From positions 146,350 through 210,349 of the forward strand of contig CAWJKR010000013.1 in NCBI GenBank assembly GCA_963843505.1: a DNA stretch of 64,000 nt, in the 5' to 3' direction. The DNA comes from Candidatus Aminicenantes bacterium (lineage in GTDB: Bacteria > Acidobacteriota > Aminicenantia > Aminicenantales > Saccharicenantaceae). The stretch's first letter is position 1. Each line of letters begins with the position of its first letter. Shown piece by piece: positions 12,825 through 36,780 of this stretch. A program made the translations under genes and the position numbers. The notes beneath the pieces were generated by a model that made no database searches, had not been told where the DNA came from, and worked only from the letters and a program-made list of their open reading frames with translations.

Positions 12825-13112
12825 ATGAACATGGCTAGCCACGATGCCACAGCCGTCAAATCTTCCATAAGGGACTTCCTCACGCATTCCGTCATGCCTC
12901 TGGCGAGGGTCGACGCTTTCAGGGACGATGAATCGTTCCTCGAACGGGGCATCCTCGATTCCACGGGCGTCCTGGAGCTGGTCGGATTCATCGAGAAGCA
13001 GTTCTCCGTCCGCGTCGAAGCCGATGAGATCACTCCCGACAACCTCGATTCCCTTGAAAAGCTGGCGGCCTTCGTGTCGCGGAAGACGGCCGCGGCGGGA
13101 CCCCGAGGCTAG
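12825..13112 (+). CDS. Acyl/peptidyl carrier protein (DltC-like)
   Basis: 95-aa ORF with the phosphopantetheine-site context GILDSTGVLELVGFIEKQF. RBS GAAGGAG precedes it. The stop lies 2 nt before the algD-like start. Confidence 0.8.
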   Translation: MNMASHDATAVKSSIRDFLTHSVMPLARVDAFRDDESFLERGILDSTGVLELVGFIEKQFSVRVEADEITPDNLDSLEKLAAFVSRKTAAAGPRG

Positions 13113-20699: not shown

Positions 20700-22220
20700 T
20701 GAGCGAGAAGAAGCTGAAAACGGGCTTGAGCCCCCTGAACAGAACGGCGATCAAAGCCACGATAGAAAACCGGGTAGACGATCGACGTGAGGCCGATGCG
20801 GACCCACGTCGCCCCTTCCGCGTTGGACGACCGCCACCGGCATCACCCGCGTGAACAGCAGCCAAAAGAGAAGGCCCGAAACGAGGGCGGCCGTCCAGTA
20901 CTTCCAGAGGATCCCCACATAGAACGAGGCTTTGATCCCGGCCGGCTTCCCGGCATACCACAAGGCGGGGATGAGCAGGATGTAGAACATGACCGAATAG
21001 GCGATCGCGACGCCGACGGGGCCGAACAGCAGGCCCAGAGAATAGAAAAGGACGGATGAGCCGAGCATGACGAAGCCCCATTTCAACAGCCGGTCCACGC
21101 GCCCGAGCGAGATGTGGAGCCAAACGTTCGTGTTGTAGATGACAAAGGCGCCGATGCCCGGGCCGAGGGCCGCGAAGACGGTGCCGGCGATGCTCCACCG
21201 GTCGCCGAGGAGAAGGGTGATCAGGTCTTTTCCCAAGAGCGTGAACAGGACGCTGCCCGGGAAGCCGACGAAGGCCAGGACCGAGAGCGCCTTGGAAAAG
21301 TAGCTGCGGTATCTCGGGGGGTCGTCGGCCAGCCGGCTCAACGTCGCGATCCCCACTCTCGTCAAGGCGATCGTCAGCTGGCTGGGCAGCACCGAGGACA
21401 GCTGAAACGCCCGGTCATAATGGCCGAGCGGAGCTTTGCCGAAAGCCTTGCCGACGAGGATCTTGTCGAGGTTGTTCCTCACGTAGGTCAAGAGGAAGCT
21501 GCCGTAGGTCCTGTAGCCGAAGGTCAGGATCGGGCGGATCGACGTCCCTCTGGCGGGGATGCCCGGTTTCCAGCGGCAGAGCAGCCAGGCCAGAACCGTC
21601 ATCGCCAGCGGCAAGGAGACATTCCGCATGACCAGAGACCAGAGGCCGAAGCCCCTGAGGGCCATGACGATCCCGAGCCCCGTGCTGACGAGCGCGGCCA
21701 GGACTTGGATGATCGCCGCCAGCTTGAATTCCATATTCCGGTTCAGAAGGGCCAGGTGGCAGGTCCCCAAGCCGCTGAAGATGATCGACAGGGCCATGCC
21801 CATGGCGATGCTCTTCAGCTGCGCTTCCCCGAAGAACCACGCGATCGCCGGGGAGAGCGCGATGAAAAGGACGGTCAGCCCTACCATGATCAGGACATTG
21901 ACCCAGAAGAGCTTTTTCATCTGGTCGCTGGTCAGGCCTTCCCGTTGCATGACCGCTTCCGTGAATCCGTTGATCCCGAAATTCTGGACGAGAAGGCTGA
22001 ACGTGGCGACCATCGAGACGAGGCCGAAGTCCTCCGGGCTCAGGATCCGAGCCAGAACGATCGTCCCCACGGTCTGGATCCCGAAGTTGGCGGTCTGGGC
22101 GAAGACGGTGAATCCGGCCCCCACGAGGGCCCTCTTCTTGAGCCCTTCCCGGAGATGTTCCGTTCCGAGCATATCCCTGGGCCTCGGTTCGTTTGGGTCG
22201 CGCTTTTCTGTGCCGGGCAA
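20677..22220 (-). CDS. Wzx-like polysaccharide flippase (MOP/PST family), one C-terminal frameshift
   Basis: ORF 20751..22220 has about 12-14 TM helices (FTVFAQTANFGIQTVGTIVLARILSPEDFGLVSMV...). The last helix and the end (IVALIAVLFRGLKPVFSFFSLIKEMVSR*) are in frame 20677..21198. Confidence 0.8.
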
Positions 22221-22288
22221 GTCCCTGGTTCCTTAAACTTTCATCAGACAATACCATATTCCCCTCGTTCGTCGCCACCCGGCCGCCA

Positions 22289-22317
22289 TTGAAATGGCGT
22301 CCGGGAAATAATAGAAT
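22289..22317 (+). promoter_or_regulatory. Candidate promoter giving a leaderless or near-leaderless transcript of the DltX-like ORF
   Basis: TTGAAA (22289-22294), 17-nt spacer, TAGAAT (22312-22317). The ATG at 22326 is only 8 nt after the -10, and no Shine-Dalgarno sequence is present. Confidence 0.4.
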
Positions 22318-22325
22318 AGACCGGA

Positions 22326-22475
22326 ATGTTCAAGAGAATCCGGGCTTGGGCGATCTTCCACCGCAAGACGATCATCCTGACTTTCGAGATATTCTGGGTC
22401 CTGGTCTTCCTGCTCGACCGCGTGACCAGCGGCAGATCCGTCGGCATCCCCCAATTCATCTATGTGAATTTCTGA
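22326..22475 (+). CDS. DltX-like micro-protein (49 aa, single TM, C-terminal FIY motif)
   Basis: My translation (below the track's size cut-off): MFKRIRAWAIFHRKTIILTFEIFWVLVFLLDRVTSGRSVGIPQFIYVNF*. Basic N-terminus, one hydrophobic helix, tail ending FIYVNF. The stop lies 6 nt before the SGNH gene start. Confidence 0.65.
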   Translation: MFKRIRAWAIFHRKTIILTFEIFWVLVFLLDRVTSGRSVGIPQFIYVNF

Positions 22476-22481
22476 TCTGGA

Positions 22482-23543
22482 ATGATGAAGAAGAAGGCCG
22501 TCGTCGTTCTCCTGACGGTCCTGGTGTGCTTGATCATGCTCGAGCTGGGGCTCAGGGCCATCGGGCGGGCGCCGACGAACATGGCCGACGGGATCGCGGA
22601 CCAGTACGGCGATTCGTTCAGGCTCAAGAAGAACGTCACCAAGGTCATGAAATTTCCCGCGTTCTCTTACACCGTGCACACCGACGAGTTCGGCTTCCGC
22701 GCCAAGGCCGTTGGACCCAGGGACCTCCAGGATCGGCGATTCTGCGTGTTCCTGGGCGCCTCGGACGTTTTCGGGAACGGCGTCGATTACGAGGATTCGT
22801 TCGTCGGCGTTTTCGCCGACGAGGCCTCCCGGCGCGGGCTGGACGTTTTGAATCTCGCCGTAGGGGGGCATTATTTCCTTGATCAAGAGTCCCTGCTCAA
22901 GGAGTTCATGGGGCGCACCGGCCTGAGGCCGGCGACGATCTTCCAGTGCGTCAACGCCCTGCATATCCCCAAGTTCGACCGCCGGAATCGGAACATCATC
23001 GTCAAGAGCGGGTACGTCATCGATAAGGCCGGCTGGCGGATCGCCTACTTGAGGCTCATGGCCGGGAACATCTCCTCGGCCTTTTGCTTTTTCCGCGACG
23101 GGATCCGGAGGATCCAGGAGAGGTACCTGAATTACGAAGTCACCGAGAAATCCCCCGAGTTCCTGCAGATCTATGCCAAAAGCAACGACATCAGGAAGCC
23201 GGAGCGGATCCGCGCGTTCTACGAGTACCTCGAGGGCTTTGAGTCCTTCTGCCGGGAGAACGCCATCGACCTCGTCTACGTCTACATGCCCCTGTCCGAC
23301 GCCTTCAAGCTGCCGGAGATGGTCAAGCAACTGGGGCTGGACCCGGACGGCTACGATGCCTCATTCTATGAGGATCTCATCCGGTCCCATTGTGAGAAGA
23401 ACGGCATCCGGCTGATCGAACCAGGGACCGCCCTCAAGCCCTATTTCGACCAGGGGAAGGGCCTGCGGTTCAAGCTGGACCCCCATTTCAACGCCTTCGC
23501 CAACAAGGTCATCGGGGACTATCTCGTCGAACAGGTCTTCTAG
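22482..23543 (+). CDS. Membrane-anchored SGNH-type acyltransferase/esterase (DltD/AlgX-like)
   Basis: Intact 353-aa ORF. N-terminal anchor MMKKKAVVVLLTVLVCLIMLELGL, serine block FCVFLGASDVFGNG, C-terminal Asp/His block FKLDPHFNAFAN. Confidence 0.65.
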   Translation: MMKKKAVVVLLTVLVCLIMLELGLRAIGRAPTNMADGIADQYGDSFRLKKNVTKVMKFPAFSYTVHTDEFGFRAKAVGPRDLQDRRFCVFLGASDVFGNGVDYEDSFVGVFADEASRRGLDVLNLAVGGHYFLDQESLLKEFMGRTGLRPATIFQCVNALHIPKFDRRNRNIIVKSGYVIDKAGWRIAYLRLMAGNISSAFCFFRDGIRRIQERYLNYEVTEKSPEFLQIYAKSNDIRKPERIRAFYEYLEGFESFCRENAIDLVYVYMPLSDAFKLPEMVKQLGLDPDGYDASFYEDLIRSHCEKNGIRLIEPGTALKPYFDQGKGLRFKLDPHFNAFANKVIGDYLVEQVF

Positions 23544-24484
23544 GCCGGATCGCGCGGGGAGGGGGCGGCGGTCCCCTCATAGGGCCTCTCTTTGGCCGGC
23601 ATGATCCCGAAGTGCGCCAGGACCTTGGAAAGGTGGTCGCATTCCTTGACCAGGTATTTCATGAAAACGTGTTGCCCCATCAGGAGCGTGAACGGAAGGG
23701 CCAACGCATAGAGCGGGATCGCGACGCACGAACGGAGCGTGGTCATGCTCAGGAAGCGGCTCTGCCGGCCTTCGACCATTCCCCGGGTGAGGGCCCTCTT
23801 CAGATAGTAGGATCTCCGGCGGCGTTCGGGCGGGACCGTCTCGAAGACCACGGCCTCCTCGCACCAGATGAAGGTCTTGCCTTTCCCCAGCATGCGCTTG
23901 AAGAAGACCGCGTCCCCTCCGCCGGTCTTTCCGAACTTCGGATCGAACCGATCGGCCTCGTCGGCGAAGACGCTCTTCAAGAGAAGGGCATTTCCCGTCC
24001 GCGTTTCGCGATAGCTCTTGATGACATAGCCGGTGGGAAACCCGCCCCTCTCCAGGAGCCGGCTCTTGATCAGCCACGCCGGGGTGAGAGGGTCGTACCG
24101 GGGCTTGACAGGGCCCAGGACCCCGTCCGACCGGGACGCCCGAAGCGCGCGGTGATGCTGGAAAAGCCAATCGTCCTCGGGGAGCTCATCGTCGTCGATG
24201 AAGGCGATCAGGTCCCCCCGGGCGTTCTCGATCGATCGGTTCCTCGCCAGCGAGATGTTGCGTTCCGGCTCGACTTGATAGGAGACCGGCAGGCGCGCCT
24301 CGTCGTGAGAGGACTGGGCCGCGCCCCTTCCGGACTCCTGGGCATCGTTGTCGACGACGACGGCCGAGAACGTGAACAGGCCCTCCGTTCTCTGCCCCTT
24401 CAGCCTGTCCAGAAGCTCGCGCAGGAGCTCCGGCCGCTTATAGGTGCATATGCAGACGCTGATATGGTCCATGCCGTCGAACAT
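23540..24484 (-). CDS. Family-2 glycosyltransferase
   Basis: Intact 314-aa ORF. ISVCICTYKRPELLRELLDRL...VVVDNDAQESG...LIAFIDDDELPEDDWL (DxD). Confidence 0.85.
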   Translation of the reverse strand: MFDGMDHISVCICTYKRPELLRELLDRLKGQRTEGLFTFSAVVVDNDAQESGRGAAQSSHDEARLPVSYQVEPERNISLARNRSIENARGDLIAFIDDDELPEDDWLFQHHRALRASRSDGVLGPVKPRYDPLTPAWLIKSRLLERGGFPTGYVIKSYRETRTGNALLLKSVFADEADRFDPKFGKTGGGDAVFFKRMLGKGKTFIWCEEAVVFETVPPERRRRSYYLKRALTRGMVEGRQSRFLSMTTLRSCVAIPLYALALPFTLLMGQHVFMKYLVKECDHLSKVLAHFGIMPAKERPYEGTAAPSPRDPA

Positions 24485-24671
24485 CGCCTCTCGCTTCGGC
24501 CGGAGATCGGGGCCGCGTTTTTTTCACCCCATGGTATATATCCGGCGGATCCGGAAAGTCAAGGAACCGGGAGCGCCGCGGACGGAAAGGCGGCGGGCCA
24601 TGGCGGACCGCCTCGATCGCCTTGACAGGCGGGAGAACGGTATAGTAATTAGGAAAGCCGAGGGACCATCG

Positions 24672-25301
24672 ATGACGAACTGGAAGAGGCTGCGCGCGAT
24701 AAAGCGATTCGTCTGGCAGGACAACGCGGCCCTCTGGTATGAGAAGGACCTCCTCGGGGGGACCGCGGCGCCGGACATGACATTGCCGGTGCGCCTCGAT
24801 ATCCATGATACCGAAGGCACCCTGAGCTGGCTGAGGTCCTTTCGGGAATCCTGGATGTACGACCCGAAGGAGATCGATGTCGGGCTGAGAGAGGGGCACT
24901 ATTTCGCCAACGCCAAACTCGAAGGACGGATCATCGGGTACACGAAGATCGGCCTCGGGAGCGTCTATCTCTACGACTTCGGGACCTGCCTGGTCCTTCC
25001 CGGCCAGGTCTCCTTCCTCTATCATGTCTATGTCGACAAGGAGTTCAGGAAGAACAACATCGCGCAGAACCTCATCATCGCGGTCATCTCCGACCTCGTC
25101 CCGCGGGGGTACCGGAAGATGGCCTGCCATATCGCCGCGTGGAACAAGCCTTCGATCCGTCTTTTCGAGGGCCTGGGATTCCGGTGCATCGCTGACGTCC
25201 GGTTCCACGGGCTTTTCCATCTGCTGAAGATATGGACCTACCGGACATCCGGGGCGAGCCGGCGGAAGATCTCACTGCGCTTGCCGAACATCCTGTGCTA
25301 G
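24672..25301 (+). CDS. GNAT-family acetyltransferase
   Basis: Taken from the internal ATG of ORF 24444..25301. GYTKIGLGSVYLYDFG...LYHVYVDKEFRKNNIAQNLIIAVISDLVPRGYRKMACHIAAWNKPSIRLFEGLGFR. The start is uncertain (24600 or 24672). Confidence 0.6.
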   Translation: MTNWKRLRAIKRFVWQDNAALWYEKDLLGGTAAPDMTLPVRLDIHDTEGTLSWLRSFRESWMYDPKEIDVGLREGHYFANAKLEGRIIGYTKIGLGSVYLYDFGTCLVLPGQVSFLYHVYVDKEFRKNNIAQNLIIAVISDLVPRGYRKMACHIAAWNKPSIRLFEGLGFRCIADVRFHGLFHLLKIWTYRTSGASRRKISLRLPNILC

Positions 25302-25370: not shown

Positions 25371-26480
25371 ATGCACCGCCGTTATGACGGCCTGATCGCG
25401 GACATCAACGAGGCCTCCGAGGCCGAATGGGCCGAAGCCTTGACCTCCTTCGCCGACGCGAGCATCTATCAGTGTTGGCCCTACGGAAGCGTCAAATGGG
25501 GCGCTGGCCATAACGAACATGTCGTCTTGAAGAAGGACGGGACCGTCCTGTCCCTGGCCCAGGTGGCGATCGTCAAGCCCCCCATCCCGGGAGTGGGGAT
25601 GGCCTACGTGACGTGGGGGCCGCTCTGGAAGAGGAGAGGCCTCCCTCCCGACGAAGCCCCCTTCCGGTCGATGTTGGAGGTCCTGAAGGACGAATACGCC
25701 CATCGCCGCAAGCTCCTGCTCAGGATCAAGCCCTACGGCTTCGAAGAGACCGACGGGGCGATGAGGTCCGTCCTGGAACAGGCGGGCTTCCTCCCCACCC
25801 GAGGGGTCCAGAAAGCGAAGAAAAGGACCATTCTGGTCGACCTGGGCCCCTCGCCCGATGAGATGAGGAGAAGGCTGTCCAAGAAATGGAGGAACAGCCT
25901 GACCAACAGCGAGAAGGAGGGCCTCACGGTCAAGGAAGGATTCTCGGGGCAGCCGCTGGGCGCCATCCAACCGATGTATCATGCCCTCATGAAGAAGAAG
26001 AACTTCTCCGGATGGGACCTGGATGAGCTGGCTCGGATCCAGGATCTGCTCGAAGGCCGCCAGAAGATGCGGATCAGCACCTGCGAAGAGGAAGGCCGGA
26101 CCATCGCGGCTTCCGTCTGCTCCGCGCTCGGAGATACGGCGGTCGGCCTCATCGGGATGACCAGCGACGAGGGCCGGAAGAGAAGGGCCTACTATCTTCT
26201 CCAGTGGGACGAGATCCTCTGGGCCAGGAAGATCGGCGCCGCGACCTACGATCTCAACGGGATCAATCCCGAGACGAATCCGACGGTCTATCACTTCAAG
26301 TCCGGCCTCAACGGCGACGAGGTCACGCTCCTGAGCGTCTATGATTATTGCCGGAGCCGGTGCCTTTCCTTCCTCATCGATCGGGCCGAACGCCTCGTCG
26401 ATTTGAAACTGGCCAAGGTGTTCCTGCGGCTGGCCAAGGGCCCCTTCCGACGGCCGCCGGGACGCTCCGCGGACCTTTAG
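25371..26480 (+). CDS. FemAB-family-like protein (aminoacyl-transferase fold, EPS-locus type)
   Basis: Intact 369-aa ORF with RBS AAAGGAG. IYQCWPYGSVKW...RRLSKKWRNSLTNSEKEGLTV...YYLLQWDEILWARKIGAATYDLNGINP...VYHFKSGLNG. Family assigned by pattern only. Confidence 0.55.
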   Translation: MHRRYDGLIADINEASEAEWAEALTSFADASIYQCWPYGSVKWGAGHNEHVVLKKDGTVLSLAQVAIVKPPIPGVGMAYVTWGPLWKRRGLPPDEAPFRSMLEVLKDEYAHRRKLLLRIKPYGFEETDGAMRSVLEQAGFLPTRGVQKAKKRTILVDLGPSPDEMRRRLSKKWRNSLTNSEKEGLTVKEGFSGQPLGAIQPMYHALMKKKNFSGWDLDELARIQDLLEGRQKMRISTCEEEGRTIAASVCSALGDTAVGLIGMTSDEGRKRRAYYLLQWDEILWARKIGAATYDLNGINPETNPTVYHFKSGLNGDEVTLLSVYDYCRSRCLSFLIDRAERLVDLKLAKVFLRLAKGPFRRPPGRSADL

Positions 26481-26548: not shown

Positions 26549-27820
26549 TCATAAGCCCGCCAGGACGGCCACGGCCAGGATCCGGAGCTTTTCGATATCG
26601 AGGACGAACAGGGACAGGCCGATGGCGAAGAAGTTGAACGTCGCGACCGTCCCCAAGACCGTGCTGAGCTTGGATCGGAAATATTTCTGGAGGAACGGCG
26701 AGCGCGCCTTTCTCTTTTCACGCTGGTAGATGGTCAGGACGGCGATGCCGATCCCGTGGTAGGCCCCCCAGAGGACGAAATGCGGCGCCTCGCCATGCCA
26801 CATGCCGCAGACGACGAAGGTGATGATCATGCCGAGGTTGGAGAGAAAGACGGGGTGACGCCGGAAGAAGTCGAGGCCCCTGAACTTGCGGACGATCGGC
26901 CAGTAAATGTAGTCGACGAGCCAGCTCGTGAGCGACATGTGCCAGTTGGCCCATAGCTCCCGGATGTTCCGTTTGAGGAAAGGGTTGTTGAAATTCTCCG
27001 GAAGCTCGACGCCGATCAGCCGGGCACAGCCCAGGGCCAGGTCCGTGTACCCGGCGAAGTCGAAATAGAAATAGAGGGCATAGGCGTAGAGGCCGGCCAC
27101 GGCTCCGAGGGGCCCCATCCCGGATAGACGGTCGGGCTCGGAGGACAGGATATGGGGGTAGAGGATCTGGGCCATGACGAACTTCTTGAACAGCCCGTGC
27201 ACGATCCGCTCGAGACCCGCCCGCAGATCGGGGGCGAGCCGGGACACGGTCGGGGAACAGACCTGGGAAGCGAAGGGATTGTACCGGTTGATGGGGCCGC
27301 TGATGAAGCCGGGAAAGAAGATGATGTAGTCGATGTAGACCAGGAGATCGAGGTTCTCGATCTTCTTCCGATAAGACTCGACGAGGAAATGGATCATCCG
27401 GAAGGAAAAATAGGAGACGCCGATCAGCCGGATCATGTCGGCCGGAGCGGATCCTCCCGGCCTCGCGGCGGGAAGGAAAAGCCCTTGGATCGGACCGTAT
27501 TTGAAGAAGGCCAGGAAAGCCAGGACGGAAGCGATGCCCAGGCCGGCCTCGAGCTTCCGGCCCGCGTCCCCCCGACTGGCGTCCCCCTTCAGGCGGGATC
27601 CCAAGGCGAAGGTAATCAAGGAGAGACCGAGGACCAGGCCCATCGAGGCGAGGCCGAACCCGGGAAGGGCCAGCAAGCATCAGGATCGAGGTCAGACCCA
27701 GGAAGAGCCGTTTCCCAAGGGCCGACCGGCCGAAGATCCGGGCGCCGAGGGCGACAAGGACAGCGGAGACCCAAAAGGGCGCGCTGTAATAGAAATTGAA
27801 GTTCCAGCTGAAAGGGCTCA
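26549..27820 (-). CDS. MBOAT-family membrane O-acyltransferase (DltB/AlgI-like), one N-terminal frameshift
   Basis: ORF 26549..27676 contains GVSYFSFRMIHFLVESYR, FFPGFISGPINRY, YFDFAGYTDLALGCARLIG, ENFNNPFLKRNIRELWANWHMSLTSWL and the conserved-His block VCGMWHGEAPHFVLWGAYHG. The N-terminus MSPFSWNFNFYYSAPFWVSAVLVALG is in another frame, with ATG at 27820. Confidence 0.85.
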
Positions 27821-27841
27821 TCGGGTATATCGGGCCGGGCG

Positions 27842-29932: not shown

Positions 29933-32900
29933 ATGGCGAGAACTTCAAGGGTCCCGAACCGGAATCTCACGACCTCAATATCCTTCATCCTGATATTCGC
30001 CGCCTTCTTCCTGTTCGCATCGACGGGTCTGATCGCGCAGATCACGACGCGGCCGAGTAATCTCCAGTCCCGTCTGTCCCCAAGAACAACCGTCAATCTC
30101 AAAGTGTCCTTTACCTGCAGTCCCAAGGTCGCCATAGTCGGCCAACCCGTTCAATTCGTCGATACTTCGTCGGGGGCTCCGACATCTTGGATTTGGGATT
30201 TTGGCGACGGGACGACCAGCAATGCGAAGAACCCCACCCATGTCTATACGGCCCCTGGATTCCGGAGAATATCGCTCCTCGCCACGGCCGGCGCGACGAG
30301 CAGGAGAACGAACCGCACCGTCACCGTCGTGTCCGATACGTCGAGCGCGACCTTCGTTTTCAGCCCGACGACTCCCGGACCAGGACAGACGGTCCAATTC
30401 GCGGACACGACAGCGGGAACGCCGACCTCCTGGCAGTGGAGCTTTGGAGACGGGTCCACGAGCACCGTAAAGAACCCGAGCCACGCTTACGGCCGGACGG
30501 GAGCTTTTACCGTAATGTTGGTGGCCAGGAACAGCTCAGGCGAGAGACAGGGGAGCAAGGTGATCAATGTGGCCACGGTGGCCGTACTGGCCGCTTCCTT
30601 CACTCACACGCCGTCCCTCCCCATGGCCAACCAATCGATCCAGTTCACAGACATGTCGACGGGTTCTCCGACCGCGTGGCTCTGGGATTTTGGAGATGGC
30701 GGGACGAGCTCCGCCCAGCATCCCCTCCATACCTACGCGACGGCCGGATCTAAGAGCGTGACGCTGACCGTCACCAACAGCACCGGATCGAACTCGACGA
30801 CCCGGGCCATTTCAATCGGAACGCCGCTGGCGGCCTCATTCAGCTATAGCCCGACTTCCCCGACGGTCGGTCGCTCCATGCAATTCACGGACACCTCGGT
30901 CGGCTCGCCCACCTCCTGGCTGTGGAATTTCGGCGACGGAGGAACCAGCAGCCTTCAGAATCCCCTCCACACCTATACGACCGCCGGTTCGAAGTCGGTG
31001 ACGCTGACTGTCACCAACAGCGGCGGATCGAACGCGATAAGTCGAACGGTCACCGTTGGGGCCGCCCTCGCGGCGTCTTTCAGCTATAGCCCTGCCTCGC
31101 CGACGGCAGGCCAATCCGTGCAATTCACGGACACCTCGGTCGGCTCTCCCACCTCCTGGCTCTGGAATTTTGGAGATGGCGGAACGAGTACGGCACAGAA
31201 TCCGAGTCATACATACGCGACGTCCGGATCGAAGACGGTGACATTGACGGTAACCGGGGCTTCCGACTCCAACAGCGCGAGCCAGACGGTGACGGTGGGG
31301 GCGGCGCTGGCGGCCTCGTTCGGTTTCAGCCCGGCCTCTCCCGCGGTGGATCAGTCGGTACAGTTCACGGACACGTCGACCGGCGCGCCGACCTCGCGGT
31401 CATGGAACTTCGGGGACGGGGCGACCTCGACGGCCCAGAACCCCAGCCACAGCTACGCGACGGCCGGGGCCAAGACCGTGACCCTGACGGTCACGAACGC
31501 CTCGGGCTCGAACAGCACGAGCCGGACGGTGACGGTGGGGGCGGCGCTGGCCGCCTCGTTCAGCTTCAGCCCGGCCTCTCCCACGGTGGATCAATCGGTG
31601 CAGTTCACGGACACGTCGACCGGCGCGCCGACCTCGCGGTCATGGAACTTCGGGGACGGGGCGACCTCGACGGCCCAGAACCCCAGCCACAGCTACGCGA
31701 CGGCCGGGGCCAAGACCGTGACCCTGACTGTCACGAACGCCTCGGGCTCGAACAGCACGAGCCGGACGGTGACGGTGGGGGCGGCGCTGACCGCCTCGTT
31801 CAGCTTCAGCCCGGCCTCTCCCACGGTGGATCAATCGGTGCAGTTCACGGACACGTCGACCGGCGCGCCGACCTCGCGGTCGTGGAACTTCGGGGACGGG
31901 GCGACCTCGACGGCCCAGAACCCCAGCCACAGCTACGCGACGGCCGGGGCCAAGACCGTGACCCTGACGGTCACGAACGCCTCGGGCTCGAACAGCACGA
32001 GCCGGACGGTGACGGTGGGGGCGGCGCTGGCCGCCTCGTTCAGCTTCAGCCCGGCCTCTCCCACGGTGGATCAATCGGTGCAGTTCACGGACACGTCGAC
32101 CGGCGCGCCGACCTCGCGGTCATGGAACTTCGGGGACGGGGCGACCTCGACGGCCCAGAACCCGAGCCACAGCTACGCGACGGCCGGGGCCAAGACCGTG
32201 ACCCTGACGGTCACGAACGCCTCGGGCTCGAACAGCACGAGCCGGACGGTCACGGTTTCGCCGTCGACCATCATCTCGTCGTCGTTCTCCTTCAGCCCGT
32301 CCGCGCCGGCCCCGGGGCAGACGGTGCAGTTCACGGACACCTCCACAGGGACCCCGACCTCGTGGCAGTGGGACTTCGGCGACGGATCATCGAGCACGTC
32401 CCAAAATCCCAGCCACGCTTTTTCGACCGAGGGCTCCTACACCGTGATGCTGATCGCGAGCAATGCGTCCGGTTCGGACACGGTCAGCCGGACGGTGACC
32501 GTGGCGACGACGACCGAGATCCTGCCGGACGACAGGATTTATGATTGGACCACCACCGGCATCCCCGGGGGTATCCCCAGCCGGACGACCATTTTCAGGA
32601 CCCTGGCGCCTTCCAATAGCCTGTCCGAGATCAACGCCGCTATCGCCGCCTGTCCGTCCGGCCAGGTCGTCTTCCTGTCCGCCGGGACCTATAACATCAG
32701 CGGCATCGGCCGGAAGTCCGGCGTCACGGTGCGCGGGGCCGGGGCCGGCCAGACGATCATCAACTCCGGCGGATCGACGGCGTTCTCTTCCACGGGCGGG
32801 TCGTTCAACTACGACGGCGGACATCAGGCCATCGCCAACGGGACATGGCTGCAGAAGGGATCGACGAACATCACCCTGACATCCACCCCCGGAAGCCAGT

Positions 32901-34123
32901 TCGCCGTCGGACGGCTCATCATGATCAATCAGAACGACGATCATATATTGGTCTTCCCCCGCACCGGGAATTGGGCGGGCACGAGAAACCTCCGTCATGT
33001 TTCCCGCATCACCGCGATCTCCGGGAACACCATCACGTTCGCGACCCCGCTCCCCTACACGTTCGTCAACGCGCAGAGCCCCGGCGCCCAGGCCATCTCC
33101 GCGAACGACTCCCAGTTCGGCATCGAGGACATGACCATCGACGCCGGATCGTGCGTCCGCTTCCAGGGATCTGACCGGTGCTGGATCAAGGGCTGCGAGC
33201 TCCGGGGGTTCGACAATGAAGCCGTCTTCATGAGAGACAGCCACCAGCTCGAGATCCGGCGGTGCTACATCCACGACGCCGAGGGCTTCCCCAACCAGAG
33301 CGACGGCTACGGGGTCTATTCCCAGTACGCCGTCTCCAACATCCTCGTCGAGGATTGTATCGGCACCCGCATGTCGTACATGACGGTCATGAACGGGAAC
33401 GACTCGAGCGCATTCCTCTACAACTTCATCTGGGGCATGGGTCGCGCCGGCTTCGCCTGGCAGAATCCCGGATTCAACTGCAACCACGGCCCGCACAGCA
33501 TCATGAACCTCTGGGAAGGGAACAAGACGGAGCGGTGGCAGAACGACGCCTACCACGGATCGGCTTCGCACCAGACGCTTTTCCGCAACCATATCCACGG
33601 CAAGCACCCGTCCTACACGCTCGACCGGCGCATCATGGACTTCGGGCGCACGAGCTACTACTACAATGCGGTCGGCAATGTCGTCGGTGACTCGTCGTGG
33701 AACCCGACCTACTATCAGGCCTCGAAACAGACGGGGACGGGATATTTCACGGGCGGATTGGACCGTTCGCAGGGCTATCTGTGGGTCCTGGGCTACCCCA
33801 ACATGGGGAGCGGGAGCCTGAGCGAGGAGACGTCATTGACAGGCTTCACCCCGCCGGGCGGATCGTACCCCGACTCGAAGGTCCTGACGACGCTGATCCG
33901 GCACGGCAACTACGACTACTACAATAAGGCCACGATATGGGACAGCGGGATCTCTTCGCACGCGCTTCCCGAAAGCCTGAAGTATTCATCCAAGCCCAGC
34001 TACTTCGGCGCCGCCCAGTGGCCTCCGATCGGTCCCGACGTCAGCGGACTGGTCACGGCCATCCCGTCCGAAGCCCGGTGGAACGCCTACCTGAGCTCGG
34101 GCCGAGTGAGCGACCTCTTCTAG
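29933..34123 (+). CDS. Large secreted protein: signal anchor, 10 PKD domains and a C-terminal right-handed beta-helix catalytic-type domain
   Basis: Intact 1396-aa ORF. N-terminus LTTSISFILIFAAFFLFASTGLIA. Ten ~80-aa modules carry the PKD signature (VQFTDTS.G.PTSW.W.FGDG.TS...NPSH.Y...G...VTLTV.N). The C-terminal ~550 aa are paralogous to 27918..29771. Confidence 0.85.
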   Translation: MARTSRVPNRNLTTSISFILIFAAFFLFASTGLIAQITTRPSNLQSRLSPRTTVNLKVSFTCSPKVAIVGQPVQFVDTSSGAPTSWIWDFGDGTTSNAKNPTHVYTAPGFRRISLLATAGATSRRTNRTVTVVSDTSSATFVFSPTTPGPGQTVQFADTTAGTPTSWQWSFGDGSTSTVKNPSHAYGRTGAFTVMLVARNSSGERQGSKVINVATVAVLAASFTHTPSLPMANQSIQFTDMSTGSPTAWLWDFGDGGTSSAQHPLHTYATAGSKSVTLTVTNSTGSNSTTRAISIGTPLAASFSYSPTSPTVGRSMQFTDTSVGSPTSWLWNFGDGGTSSLQNPLHTYTTAGSKSVTLTVTNSGGSNAISRTVTVGAALAASFSYSPASPTAGQSVQFTDTSVGSPTSWLWNFGDGGTSTAQNPSHTYATSGSKTVTLTVTGASDSNSASQTVTVGAALAASFGFSPASPAVDQSVQFTDTSTGAPTSRSWNFGDGATSTAQNPSHSYATAGAKTVTLTVTNASGSNSTSRTVTVGAALAASFSFSPASPTVDQSVQFTDTSTGAPTSRSWNFGDGATSTAQNPSHSYATAGAKTVTLTVTNASGSNSTSRTVTVGAALTASFSFSPASPTVDQSVQFTDTSTGAPTSRSWNFGDGATSTAQNPSHSYATAGAKTVTLTVTNASGSNSTSRTVTVGAALAASFSFSPASPTVDQSVQFTDTSTGAPTSRSWNFGDGATSTAQNPSHSYATAGAKTVTLTVTNASGSNSTSRTVTVSPSTIISSSFSFSPSAPAPGQTVQFTDTSTGTPTSWQWDFGDGSSSTSQNPSHAFSTEGSYTVMLIASNASGSDTVSRTVTVATTTEILPDDRIYDWTTTGIPGGIPSRTTIFRTLAPSNSLSEINAAIAACPSGQVVFLSAGTYNISGIGRKSGVTVRGAGAGQTIINSGGSTAFSSTGGSFNYDGGHQAIANGTWLQKGSTNITLTSTPGSQFAVGRLIMINQNDDHILVFPRTGNWAGTRNLRHVSRITAISGNTITFATPLPYTFVNAQSPGAQAISANDSQFGIEDMTIDAGSCVRFQGSDRCWIKGCELRGFDNEAVFMRDSHQLEIRRCYIHDAEGFPNQSDGYGVYSQYAVSNILVEDCIGTRMSYMTVMNGNDSSAFLYNFIWGMGRAGFAWQNPGFNCNHGPHSIMNLWEGNKTERWQNDAYHGSASHQTLFRNHIHGKHPSYTLDRRIMDFGRTSYYYNAVGNVVGDSSWNPTYYQASKQTGTGYFTGGLDRSQGYLWVLGYPNMGSGSLSEETSLTGFTPPGGSYPDSKVLTTLIRHGNYDYYNKATIWDSGISSHALPESLKYSSKPSYFGAAQWPPIGPDVSGLVTAIPSEARWNAYLSSGRVSDLF
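30101..32500 (+). repeat. Coding tandem array, 240-bp period x 10 (PKD modules)
   Basis: Module starts were read at about 30101, 30341, 30581, 30821, 31061, 31301, 31541, 31781, 32021 and 32261. The outer modules are diverged. Confidence 0.85.
31301..32260 (+). repeat. Core of 4 near-identical 240-bp repeats
   Basis: Copies at 31301, 31541, 31781 and 32021 differ at only about 1-7 positions per 240 bp by eye. Most differences are synonymous (gtcatgg vs gtcgtgg, ctgacg vs ctgact, aaccccagc vs aacccgagc). Confidence 0.9.
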
Positions 34124-34205: not shown

Positions 34206-35777
34206 CTACATCAGCTTGCGCTTGAGGATCTTGCCGGATTCGTTCTTGGGCAGGGAATCCCGGATCTCGTAGAGCTTCGGGATCTTGTACACCGCCAGCC
34301 GTTGCTGCAGGAACGCCGGCAGCTCCTCCGAGTGATCTCTCGGAAAACCCCGGCCTGACGACGATGAAGGCTTTCGGGGCCTCCCCCAGGACATCATCCG
34401 CTACGCCGACGACGGCGACTTCGATGACCGCCGGGTGTTCGTGGAGCGCCTCCTCGATCTCCTTGGCGCTGACCCGGTTCCCGCCGATCTTGATCATGTC
34501 CTTGCTCCGGCCGACGACATACAGATAACCTTCGTCGTCCATCCGGCCGATGTCCCCGGTGAAGTAGAAGCCGTTCTTAAGGACCTTTTCCGTCTCCTCG
34601 GGGTGGTTCCAGTACCCGGACATGATGTTGGAGCCGCGGGCGACGATCTCGCCTTCCCGCCCCGCGGGCAGGGGAGTCCCTCGTTCGTCGGCCACGAACA
34701 GCTCGACGTTGGCGATGGCCTTCCCGATCGATCCCCATTTGCGGGGAAGATCGTCGGGATGGAGATAGGACAATCGGGCCGAGGCTTCGGTCGCGCCGTA
34801 CATGACGAAGAGCTTGGCCGGGGCGAAGGCCTCGGCGACCTCCTTCTGGACGGAGGGGGCCAGGGCCCCGCCGGCCTGGGTCACATACCGGAGCCGGGGG
34901 AACTTCGACGTCCGGAGGTTGGAGCGGCCGAGAAGGATCGTGTAAGTCGACGGCACGCCGGCGAAGCCCGTGACCTCCTGTTCCCTCATGGTCTGGAGGA
35001 CGACGTTGGGATAGAGGAATCTGTTATCGATGACGACCGATCCGCCGGCGAAGAAGTGGGTGTTCAGCAGCGACTTGCCGTAGATGTAATGGAACGGCAA
35101 GACGACCAGGATCCTGTCCTCCGGCGTCAGCCCGAGATAATCGACGATCGAGCGCGTGTTGGCCACAATGTTGAGATGGGTCAGAACGACGCCGCGCGGC
35201 TTCCCCGTGCTCCCCGAGGTGTAGACGATGGAGGCGACGTCGAGGTCGATCAGTCGCGCCTCCGGGTTGACGTCGGGCCGTCCGTCCAGCGCCTCGGGAA
35301 GTCGGACCGCCGGCCGGCCCAGCAGGCTCGGGGCTTCGCCCTCCGGCCCGTTCCAGAGGAAGACGGATTCGAGCGGGCCGGGGACATCGGGCGGCGAAGG
35401 GGCCCGTCCCACTGGGCCGGACATCAGGGTCCTCGCCGCGAGCCGGTGGCCGGCGATGAGGAATCGGACGCCGCCGTCGCGGACGATATAGGCCACATCG
35501 TCGGCGGTGTTCTCCGTGTTCAACGCCACGGTCGTCCCCCCGGCCTTGAGAATGGCGTAGTAGGAGACGACGTATTCGGCGGAATTCTCGATGAAGAGGG
35601 CCACCCGGTCGCCCTTCTTCAGGCCCCGGTCGAGGAGGAGATGGGCCAGCCGGTTGGCCCGGGCGTTCAGCTCGCCGTAAGGTATGCCAGCTCCCGCCGA
35701 GCGAAGAGGGCCAACTTGTCCGGGAACCGGACCGCCGAATCCTCGAGGAAGCTGTGGACGAATTTCGTATGGCCCAT
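34206..35777 (-). CDS. AMP-dependent synthetase/ligase (adenylating enzyme, DltA/acyl-ACP-ligase-like), frameshifted
   Basis: ORF 34144..35889 contains IVYTSGSTGKPRGVVLTH, YGATEA, GYWNHPEETEK and YFTGDIGRMDDEGYLYVVGRSKDMIKIGGNRVSAKEIE. The C-terminus is in 34206..34397 (LAVYKIPKLYEIRDSLPKNESGKILKRKLM*). ATG at 35777 gives MGHTKFVHSFLEDSAVRFPDKLALFA. Two frame changes. Confidence 0.85.
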
Positions 35778-35799: not shown

Positions 35800-36780
35800 C
35801 GCGCGTCCTAGCCGAGGTGCTTGCGGCTCCGCTCTCAAGTACTCGGTCGCCTTGATCTTCCGCTTGATGTCGTTCTGGATGTTGAGCACCTGGTCCTCGC
35901 CGAGACCGAGCTCTTCGGCGACCTCCGCCGACGGGAACGCCCTTTTCCATGGCGTACCAGACGAGGTCTCCGATCTCGAACGGGACCCGGAAGAAGAACT
36001 CCTCCTGGGTGCATTCGGCGCTGTAGGTGTCGGTCGTCGGCGTGCGCTCCCGGATCTCCTGCGGCACGCCGAGGTAGGCGGCCAGCTGGAAGACCTGCGT
36101 CTTGAAGAGGTGGGCGATGGGCTTGATATCGGCGCCCGCCGTCCCCGTACTTGACGAAGAAACCCTGCTCGTGCTCGTTCTTGTTGCCCGTCCCGATGAC
36201 GGCGTAGTTGAGACGGTCGGCGTGATAGTAGAGCATGGACATGCGGCTGCGCTGCTTGAAGTTGGAGGCGGCCACGATCTGGAGGTATTCCTTGAGCGGG
36301 ATCCTGCTCGGTCTTCTCCTCCCCTTCGGGCGAGATGATCGTCAGCTGGAAGACATTCAGGCTGGTCCTTGTCCCCCAGGGCCGACGGCAGGACGATCTT
36401 CGCCCGGTAGGTGGCGTCGTATTCGGGAAAGACGTTCTTCATGGCTTCGTCCCGGCGCCGGTAGGTCCCGAAACCGGCCAGGGCCGCGGTCATGTCTTCG
36501 ACGATGTAGGGGACGCCGAACGTGCCGGGCCAGCTTTCTGGCCAGGACCGCGCTGAGGGGATTGGAATCGGATTCGGGCATGGTGATGCCCAGCACCCGT
36601 TCCGGCCCAAAGGCCTTGGCGCTCAGAGCGAGGCAGACGCTCGAATCGATCCCGCCGCTGATGCCGATGACGCCGCCGCGCTTGTGGAGCTCCTGCCCCA
36701 CGACGCGCACGCATGGCGATGACGATGCGTTCGGCCTCGGCGGCCGCGTCGATCCGTATGTCGTTCTTAGAAAAGGACAT
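35800..36780 (-). CDS. NAD synthetase (NadE)-like PP-loop ATP pyrophosphatase, paralog 1, heavily frameshifted
   Basis: MSFSKNDIRIDAAAEAERIVIA (ATG 36780). Other fragments: LHKRGGVIGISGGIDSSVCLALSAKAFGPERVLGITMPE, FKQRSRMSMLYYHADRLNYAVIGTGNKNEHEQGFFVKYGDGGADIKPIAHLFKTQVFQLAAYLGVPQEIRERTPTTDTY, VLNIQNDIKRKIKATEYLR. The 3' end is approximate. Confidence 0.7.

Follow-up and report, generated by a model that had tools for sequence, protein, structure and literature searches.

The window analysed here is a stretch of 64,000 nucleotides from a Candidatus Aminicenantes bacterium (assembly GCA_963843505.1, contig CAWJKR010000013.1, positions 146,350 to 210,349 of the forward strand). At positions 22326-22475 of its forward strand it contains a gene of 49 codons, encoding a microprotein, next to a gene for a membrane-anchored protein with an SGNH fold. 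We propose, with a probability of roughly 0.8, that this microprotein is an acyl-tyrosine shuttle between a DltB-like acyltransferase of the MBOAT family and the SGNH enzyme in an exopolysaccharide locus. A preliminary description of this DNA, made from the sequence alone, had taken the open reading frame (ORF) for the shuttle subunit of an MBOAT-SGNH machine acting on an exopolysaccharide. This reading is supported by the conservation of the microprotein, by its terminal motif, by its genetic linkage to the two partners, by the lack of that motif in the associated MBOATs and by the gene content of the locus.

The ORF at 22326-22475 translates into MFKRIRAWAIFHRKTIILTFEIFWVLVFLLDRVTSGRSVGIPQFIYVNF, whose last six residues are FIYVNF. 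Its TGA stop codon (22473-22475) is followed by 6 nt (tctgga) and then by the ATG of the SGNH gene at 22482-23543 on the same strand. Both the sequence and its translation agree here with the preliminary description, which had given the same ORF, the same ending and the same distance. The two ORFs (22326-23543, forward strand) share one reading frame, with the TGA plus two codons between them, and in the clade of loci most like the window the end of the microprotein match and the start of the SGNH match are 10-11 nt apart, stop codon included. Such short spacing suggests translational coupling; a read-through fusion of the two proteins seems topologically implausible. The basic N-terminus, single transmembrane helix and short tail described earlier were all recovered: residues 1-15 have a net charge of +5, the hydrophobic window covers residues 16-30 with the signature TFE.FW, and the AlphaFold2 model has helices at 2-11 and 13-35 followed by a low-confidence, flexible tail. 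This tail ends with F44-I-Y46-V-N-F49, which places Tyr46 at the fourth position from the C-terminus. From the positive-inside rule, the N-terminus is predicted to lie inside and the C-terminus outside.

Taken by itself the ORF would prove nothing, because short chance ORFs are common at the GC content of this region (60-65%), where ORFs of 40-60 codons abound. A word-indexed search returned 15 full-length homologues at 53-96% identity, mostly of exactly 49 residues. Their N-termini are variable, and the invariant positions fall in the transmembrane core (I16, T19, F20, E21, F23, W24, F28-L30) and in the tail (I41-P-Q-F-I-Y46 and F49). A profile search of 1.84 billion cluster representatives extended the family to 75 clusters at E<=1e-3, 42 of them at E<=1e-10. 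Nearly all the matched clusters are 45-86 residues long and the profile match extends to their last residue. A comparison of 55 diverse members leaves F23, F44 and Y46 as the sole invariant positions, with W24, L30, N48 and F49 conserved in at least 90%, and the terminal hexapeptide varies solely within F-[IV]-Y-[VAT]-[NKQSY]-F (FIYVNF, FVYVNF and FIYANF are among the endings found). In all 72 complete metagenome copies the stop codon comes directly after the last phenylalanine of this motif. The preliminary description had proposed to look for purifying selection and for conservation of the small ORF with its terminal tyrosine. Both checks were run, the second with the outcome just given and the first with pairwise ratios of non-synonymous to synonymous substitution rates (dN/dS) of 0.07-0.28, computed over the conserved 36 codons for pairs without saturation of synonymous sites. 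Hence, 22326-22475 is a real conserved gene under purifying selection and a chance ORF is excluded. The spread of identities (53-96%) and the varied contexts also exclude the artefact of a single contaminant.

The family has passed without a name. Neither Pfam nor NCBIfam contains a family matching the microprotein, comparison of its profile with the sequences of the PDB gave chance transmembrane matches to CD47 only (E>0.8), and a tblastn search of plasmids found no match. Gene callers had been expected to miss such a gene. This expectation was only partly borne out. JGI, ENA and Logan annotations do include homologues as called genes, but in all sources they are hypothetical or unnamed proteins and carry nothing beyond the label "hypothetical protein". 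We also note E21 of TFE.FW (window positions 22386-22388), a glutamate halfway along the transmembrane helix. All close family members have it and it is frequent across the wider family; it may pair with a charged residue of the MBOAT.

We then compared the gene neighbourhoods in 85 non-redundant loci, numbered with the prefix L, which comprise 73 metagenome contigs found through the microprotein, contigs from exact look-ups and loci retrieved through the SGNH protein. Where at least 1.5 kb of sequence was available on both flanks, an orthologous MBOAT or SGNH gene was present in 38/38 loci, within 300 nt in 36 of them; where at least 5 kb was available on both flanks, MBOAT and SGNH genes were both present in 16 of 17. 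The reverse retrieval, starting from the SGNH protein only, led to the micro-ORF in 5/5 loci (two from Aminicenantes metagenome-assembled genomes (MAGs), one unclassified, one from Syntrophales and one from an Oscillospiraceae MAG). The microprotein is almost always linked to one clade of MBOATs and one clade of SGNH proteins, and the co-occurrence with MBOAT and SGNH genes that the preliminary description had put forward as a check is thereby found. The order of the genes varies: the microprotein gene precedes the SGNH gene in 34 loci and follows the MBOAT gene in 32, whereas the orders SGNH-micro-MBOAT, MBOAT-micro-SGNH and micro-MBOAT account for three, two and one. Because its position between the partners changes, the gene must be tied to the MBOAT/SGNH pair and not to the translation of one neighbour.

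This bears on a rival view, by which the ORF either arose by chance, or serves the SGNH gene as a regulatory or leader ORF upstream of it, or is the C-terminal remnant of a broken MBOAT of the PatA/AlgI type. The abundance of ORFs of this size at such GC content, the 6-nt distance to the SGNH gene, which fits translational coupling, and a degenerate second copy in L009, L044 and L045 all speak in its favour. Against it are the conservation of the amino acids over several phyla with dN/dS below 0.3, the 32 loci where the ORF lies beside the MBOAT gene and not the SGNH gene, and its conservation in about 75 clusters as a stand-alone gene that has a start codon of its own. A scan of 22100-22600 with Rfam gave only sub-threshold chance matches and no family at threshold. 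We consider this explanation highly improbable. The degenerate copies themselves (L009 9839-9952, forward strand; L044 4566-4679; L045 1684-1797) lie upstream of the SGNH gene and read ...LFWIIIFILNIVVSVCVIGIPQFIYTNFLILNKSIRL*, the motif being no longer C-terminal, and the same loci have an intact copy between the SGNH and MBOAT genes. They look like the relic of a change in gene order.

The MBOAT of the window is encoded on the reverse strand at 26549-27821. The preliminary description had taken 26549-27820 as one intact ORF, which turns out to be wrong. The main ORF is 26549-27676, and the N-terminal 48 codons (MSPFSWNFNFYYS..., with the ATG at 27821) are in another frame, the break being a 1-nt insertion, one extra g near 27674. 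The protein matches the Pfam MBOAT family with E=5e-27, and its sole NCBIfam match is TIGR04091 (DltB), with a score of 232 bits (cutoff 375) and an alignment that stops at profile position 376 out of 380. With the orthologue included, scores on this profile are 232-237 bits, under the equivalog cutoff. DltB is also the best and only characterised relative of this MBOAT: the only PDB sequences matched by the orthologue are those of DltB 6BUG and 8JEM (E~1e-40). The catalytic histidine motif GMWHG, present in the window ORF too, aligns with GFWHG of DltB 6BUG, and the C-terminal ends coincide; yet the gene lies outside any dlt operon.

The C-terminus of the window MBOAT reads ...LRILAVAVLAGL* and has no FxYxxF. 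The same is true of 53 of the 54 complete MBOAT C-termini in the related loci, which have a DltB-like end without F.Y..F. Since the associated MBOATs are DltB-like and lack FxYxxF, the shuttle motif would be supplied in trans by the microprotein. The sole exception is a second, classical MBOAT in L063 (1-1221, forward strand), which has an 82-residue C-terminal extension ending ...EFIYFQF*. This classical motif-bearing MBOAT coexists with the motif-less MBOAT associated with the microprotein, as a natural internal control, and shows that fused and split architectures can share one genome region. Apparent MBOAT-microprotein fusions in L036, L060, L062, L068 and L081, where stop-to-stop ORFs of 224-507 residues end in the motif, were rejected. 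In these loci the upstream part is an out-of-frame read-through of the high-GC MBOAT gene, and the micro-ORF has its own methionine and overlaps or abuts the MBOAT stop codon.

The proposed final acyltransferase is the SGNH protein (353 residues, 22482-23543). In its family S94 (of LGASD), G129, D333 and H335 (of DPH) are invariant and N158 nearly so, which makes S94, D333 and H335 a candidate catalytic triad. The AlphaFold2 model has a mean predicted local distance difference test score (pLDDT) of 88.5, a predicted template modelling score (pTM) of 0.85 and an N-terminal helix at residues 2-26. The N-terminal anchor, the GASD serine block and the DPH block named in the preliminary description thus all hold. 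A Foldseek search of the PDB with this model gave 31 matches at E<=1e-3, to SGNH/GDSL proteins including TesA, acetyl-xylan esterases and the peptidoglycan O-acetyltransferase PatB. Here the fold search alone worked: the window protein has no significant match in Pfam or NCBIfam, and the SGNH profile found nothing meaningful among the PDB sequences. The family has at least 168 homologues, and when 40 of these were compared with Pfam, 20/40 matched PF16822 (ALGX) weakly and 17/40 Lipase_GDSL_2, against 0/40 for DltD. Hence, the partner is an SGNH enzyme that is AlgX-like rather than DltD-like. Like AlgX/AlgJ and PatB, which are O-acetyltransferases of polysaccharides or peptidoglycan, it combines the SGNH fold with an N-terminal membrane anchor and a pairing with an MBOAT; unlike them, the window protein is without a significant Pfam match, belongs to an otherwise unannotated family and has an Asp-His spacing of D-x-H. 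Two of the homologues (P0043 and P0079) bear the labels of MAGs, one of a Methanosarcinaceae archaeon and one of Candidatus Brocadiia. The family may reach Planctomycetota, and its presence in an archaeal bin could result from mis-binning or horizontal transfer.

All the pieces of a bacterial MBOAT-SGNH relay (as in Dlt, PatAB, AlgIJFX or WssHI) are present in the window: an MBOAT with the catalytic histidine, an anchored SGNH protein with the S, D and H residues, and FxYxxF provided by an adjacent microprotein. The microprotein would cross the membrane once, from a cytoplasmic N-terminus to an external C-terminus, and would be the detachable one of three components of a trans-membrane acyltransferase, the one that shuttles the acyl group. 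The MBOAT would take, with the histidine of GMWHG, an acyl group from a cytoplasmic thioester donor and pass it to Tyr46 of FIYVNF at the outer face of the membrane. Through its flexible tail the microprotein would then present the acyl-tyrosine ester to the SGNH protein at Ser94, and this enzyme would esterify the polysaccharide that the surrounding Wzx-dependent locus produces. The probable donor is the carrier protein of the locus (12825-13112), loaded by a FadD-like ligase (34212-35777). The acylation of Tyr46 is predicted by analogy with DltX and PatA, and the donor and the polysaccharide acceptor named here are putative.

The first of these analogies is with acetyl-CoA-dependent MBOATs such as PatA, AlgI and WssH, whose shuttle hexapeptide sits on two additional helices at the C-terminus; in DltB these two helices are missing and DltX provides the motif (Anderson, Schultz et al. 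2025, PMC12148441). The classical MBOAT of L063 and the other 53 C-termini show just this contrast. The hexapeptide of Neisseria gonorrhoeae PatA is FIYANF and, when acetylated on its tyrosine, is a competent acetyl donor to PatB in vitro (PMC12148441). Several members of the microprotein family end identically, and in both systems the motif comes after a transmembrane helix, at the external face and next to an SGNH partner. Yet, in PatA it is fused to the MBOAT on two extra transmembrane helices, whereas here it belongs to a separate product with one helix.

One might argue that the microprotein is a non-catalytic accessory, such as an assembly factor, a membrane tether or a regulator, whose C-terminus docks in the active site of the SGNH protein without ever carrying a covalent acyl group. 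The tight linkage and the conserved transmembrane face TFE.FW indeed show physical interaction only. Furthermore, DltX's C-terminal peptide binds DltD and DltE (PMC13653941), and binding alone could explain the conservation. But a shuttle tyrosine is required in every characterised MBOAT-SGNH pathway (PMC12148441) and the MBOATs associated with the microprotein have none of their own. In addition, the invariant residue is exactly a tyrosine, at the same distance from the C-terminus as in DltX and PatA. We thus regard an accessory role as unlikely and favour the acyl-tyrosine shuttle.

The second analogy is with DltX, the microprotein that shuttles acyl groups in the D-alanylation of teichoic acid by the dltXABCD pathway of Firmicutes. 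The DltX of Bacillus thuringiensis (sequence from Kamar et al., PMC5541007) has 48 residues, against 49 for the microprotein, and in both the hydrophobic window spans residues 16-30 and the tyrosine is the fourth residue from the C-terminus, at 14 residues from the helix in DltX and at 15 in the microprotein. Both have a basic N-terminus, one transmembrane helix and a C-terminal F-I-Y-x-x-F, and both are found beside a motif-less MBOAT and a membrane-anchored SGNH protein; the locus of the window also contains a candidate carrier protein and a candidate adenylating enzyme. The differences concern the helix, the partners and the context. The signature TFE.FW of the microprotein includes a membrane-embedded glutamate, whereas the Bacillus DltX has Y-Y-L...LLWLY and no comparable glutamate. 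The microprotein goes together with an AlgX-like SGNH protein, with a FadD-like ligase and with an acyl carrier protein (ACP) that is not DltC. The genes are dispersed through an exopolysaccharide locus and do not form a dltXABCD operon, and Aminicenantes/Acidobacteriota, Syntrophales, Oscillospiraceae and other lineages have the family in polysaccharide loci.

These likenesses raise the question of whether the microprotein is simply a highly diverged true DltX, engaged in the D-alanylation of a polymer other than teichoic acid, much as in the dlt and dra loci reported from some Gram-negative bacteria. DltB is after all the closest characterised relative of the MBOAT, and the locus has a carrier protein as well as an adenylating enzyme. 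Moreover, a small ORF in some Gram-negative dlt operons shares the topology of the Firmicute DltX and not its sequence (Kamar et al., PMC5541007). Yet, several findings speak against it. The intact orthologue of the ligase, in L002, is FadD-like and TIGR03098-like: it scores 400 bits with PRK06187 (long-chain acyl-CoA ligase) and 383 bits with TIGR03098 (exosortase-A-associated ligase), both below cutoff, and DltA is absent among the best 25 families listed for it. The carrier protein is best matched by another type of ACP and reaches only 22.7 bits with DltC, for a cutoff of 68. The MBOAT remains at 232-237 bits where the DltB cutoff is 375, the microprotein has no match to PF12459, the SGNH protein is AlgX-like, none of the 40 homologues matching DltD, and the genes are scattered. 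A true Dlt system is for these reasons very unlikely, and we retain a DltX-like acyl shuttle of another pathway.

The nature of the donor can be approached through the genes that recur in these loci. In the window, a phosphopantetheine-binding carrier protein of 95 residues with an LDS motif is encoded at 12825-13112 on the forward strand (PF00550, 22.2 bits against a cutoff of 20.8); its best NCBIfam match is an OlsHI-type ACP, and its part would be that of an acyl donor carrier, comparable to DltC. The FadD-like AMP-binding ligase, at 34212-35777 on the reverse strand, is split over three frames and was recognised by tblastn with the intact L002 orthologue (71% identity). A frameshifted gene for a NadE-like ATP-pyrophosphatase or amidotransferase is found at 35821-36707, also on the reverse strand, and its family directly follows the microprotein gene in many loci. 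The carrier and ligase genes are 9-12 kb away from the microprotein gene. Neither these two genes nor the frameshift in the MBOAT gene had been mentioned in the preliminary description. Among the 17 long loci, nine have genes for phosphopantetheine-binding carriers and six have genes for AMP-ligases, and the carrier gene adjoins the MBOAT gene in L004, L028 and L030. NadE-like genes are present in 18 loci and AsnB-like genes in 20. In one subfamily, with the gene order SGNH-MBOAT-micro, a NadE-like gene (PF02540) lies directly 3' of the micro-ORF, with AsnB-like, phosphopantetheine-binding and AMP-binding genes alongside; NadE-like genes follow the micro-ORF in L080 (1426-8947) and also in L059, L060, L062, L065, L067, L071-L073, L075, L077, L082 and L084.

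The recurrence of carrier, ligase and NadE/AsnB-like genes suggests a carrier-dependent acylation of exopolysaccharide with a group that is neither acetyl nor D-alanyl, and, conserved as a module that would build the donor, the four kinds of gene hint at an acyl group that is tailored and perhaps amidated. That the microprotein system does depend on a carrier we hold to be somewhat short of an even bet. About half of the long loci lack carrier and ligase genes, and an acyl-CoA donor is for this reason possible. One might go further and speculate, at slightly worse odds, that the microprotein marks a so far unrecognised pathway, widespread in uncultured phyla, in which a FadD-like ligase, an ACP and NadE/AsnB-like amidotransferases join the microprotein and its two partners, the DltB-like MBOAT and the AlgX-like SGNH protein. 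In such a pathway a non-acetyl acyl group, possibly an amidated or otherwise tailored carboxylate, would be built on the carrier, relayed through acyl-tyrosine and esterified to exopolysaccharide. If true, the split between MBOAT and microprotein would be a general signature of carrier-dependent MBOAT systems, of which Dlt would be the special case of Firmicutes.

Several observations weigh against an acyl shuttle of this kind. The preliminary description had named the lack of a match to the DltX family as a sign against its reading, and there is indeed none: the window peptide and nine divergent relatives do not match PF12459 (DUF3687) even at E<=10, whereas the DltX of B. thuringiensis, as positive control in the same scan, gives E=2e-21 and 75.7 bits. 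An hhalign comparison of the 55 members with nine DltX sequences of the Bacillus cereus group gave a probability of 2.1% and E=0.023 over the last 9 columns; the DltX alignment is narrow, since a search seeded with B. thuringiensis DltX retrieved sequences of the B. cereus group only, the proteins are very short, and the comparison has low power. The resemblance to DltX could be convergent. By analogy the microprotein would work like DltX, membership of the DltX family being undetectable by sequence. The absence of carrier and ligase genes from about half of the long loci (e.g. L009, L038, L079, L081) counts here as well. So does the state of the genes in the window: relative to intact orthologues, those for the MBOAT, for the ligase and for the NadE-like protein are all frameshifted. 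Genes in loci L008 and L010, from Nanopore-type MAGs, are likewise split across frames. Assembly indels, as systematic errors of a long-read assembly, are the likeliest cause of the frameshifts in the window; a decaying system undergoing pseudogenisation is a possible one. Finally, 11 loci have no partner gene, all of them short or truncated, and one subgroup (L043 and L046-L048) has a Wzy-like gene upstream of the micro-ORF and, over the 0.3-2.5 kb of downstream sequence at hand, neither an SGNH nor an MBOAT gene. In this subgroup, the micro-ORF follows a membrane protein of 454 residues resembling Wzy/O-antigen ligases (e.g. L046 1065-2692), and downstream there are just GC-rich ORFs of doubtful coding value.

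The type of mechanism proposed here is already known; what is new is a multi-phylum family of microproteins, predicted to act in trans as acyl shuttles with a DltB-like MBOAT and an AlgX-like SGNH protein in exopolysaccharide loci. Full-text searches of the literature found no DltX-like microprotein described outside Dlt systems, a prior mention in Schultz et al. 2023 being possible. The current model recognises two types of pathway: Dlt, with a carrier protein and a separate DltX, and all the others, with acyl-CoA and a motif fused to the MBOAT (PMC12148441). Indeed, the non-Dlt MBOAT-SGNH pathways are said to have neither a DltX-like microprotein nor a carrier protein (PMC12148441). The microprotein family would break this division, because it associates a separate shuttle and a DltB-like MBOAT with exopolysaccharide loci, often together with a carrier and a ligase. 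Nature here also provides a way to test if carrier-protein donors and the split architecture go together. In practice, hidden subunits could be sought by a simple rule, namely an ORF of 45-55 codons whose product ends in F-[IV]-Y-x-x-F and which lies next to an early-ending MBOAT. About 75 clusters of unnamed or hypothetical proteins could now be annotated, and they may point to unknown acyl decorations of the polysaccharides of environmental biofilms.

The genes around the microprotein belong to a locus of Wzx-dependent polysaccharide biosynthesis. Divergent from the microprotein gene is a flippase of the Wzx/MOP family (20751-22220, reverse strand; PF13440, E=1e-72, and MOP flippase in NCBIfam). 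Farther upstream are genes for a UDP-sugar dehydrogenase, a glycosyltransferase of family 4 (GT4), an amidotransferase and a YdjC protein. On the other side of the SGNH gene, scans with Pfam and NCBIfam identified a family-2 glycosyltransferase (23540-24484, reverse strand). A GNAT acetyltransferase (24444-25301) and a protein of the FemAB family, resembling aminoacyl-tRNA-dependent transferases (25371-26480), follow on the forward strand and are kept in syntenic loci.

Upstream of the microprotein gene, TTGAAA-17-TAGAAT (22289-22317, forward strand) ends 8 nt 5' of the ATG, at the place indicated by the preliminary description. It is the sole sigma-70-like match in a scan of 2 kb (10/12 positions), where 0.6 +/- 0.8 matches are expected by chance. 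The hexamers are kept in the closest relatives, L001 and L010, in part in L008 and not in L006. A role as promoter, giving a leaderless or near-leaderless mRNA, is plausible for this candidate site.

Just past the MBOAT gene, the forward strand encodes at 29933-34123 a protein of 1396 residues in which some ten PKD domains are combined with a beta-helix region; it may be a surface protein or a polysaccharide lyase associated with the exopolysaccharide. Proteins with PKD repeats are encoded at the same position in the syntenic locus L001.

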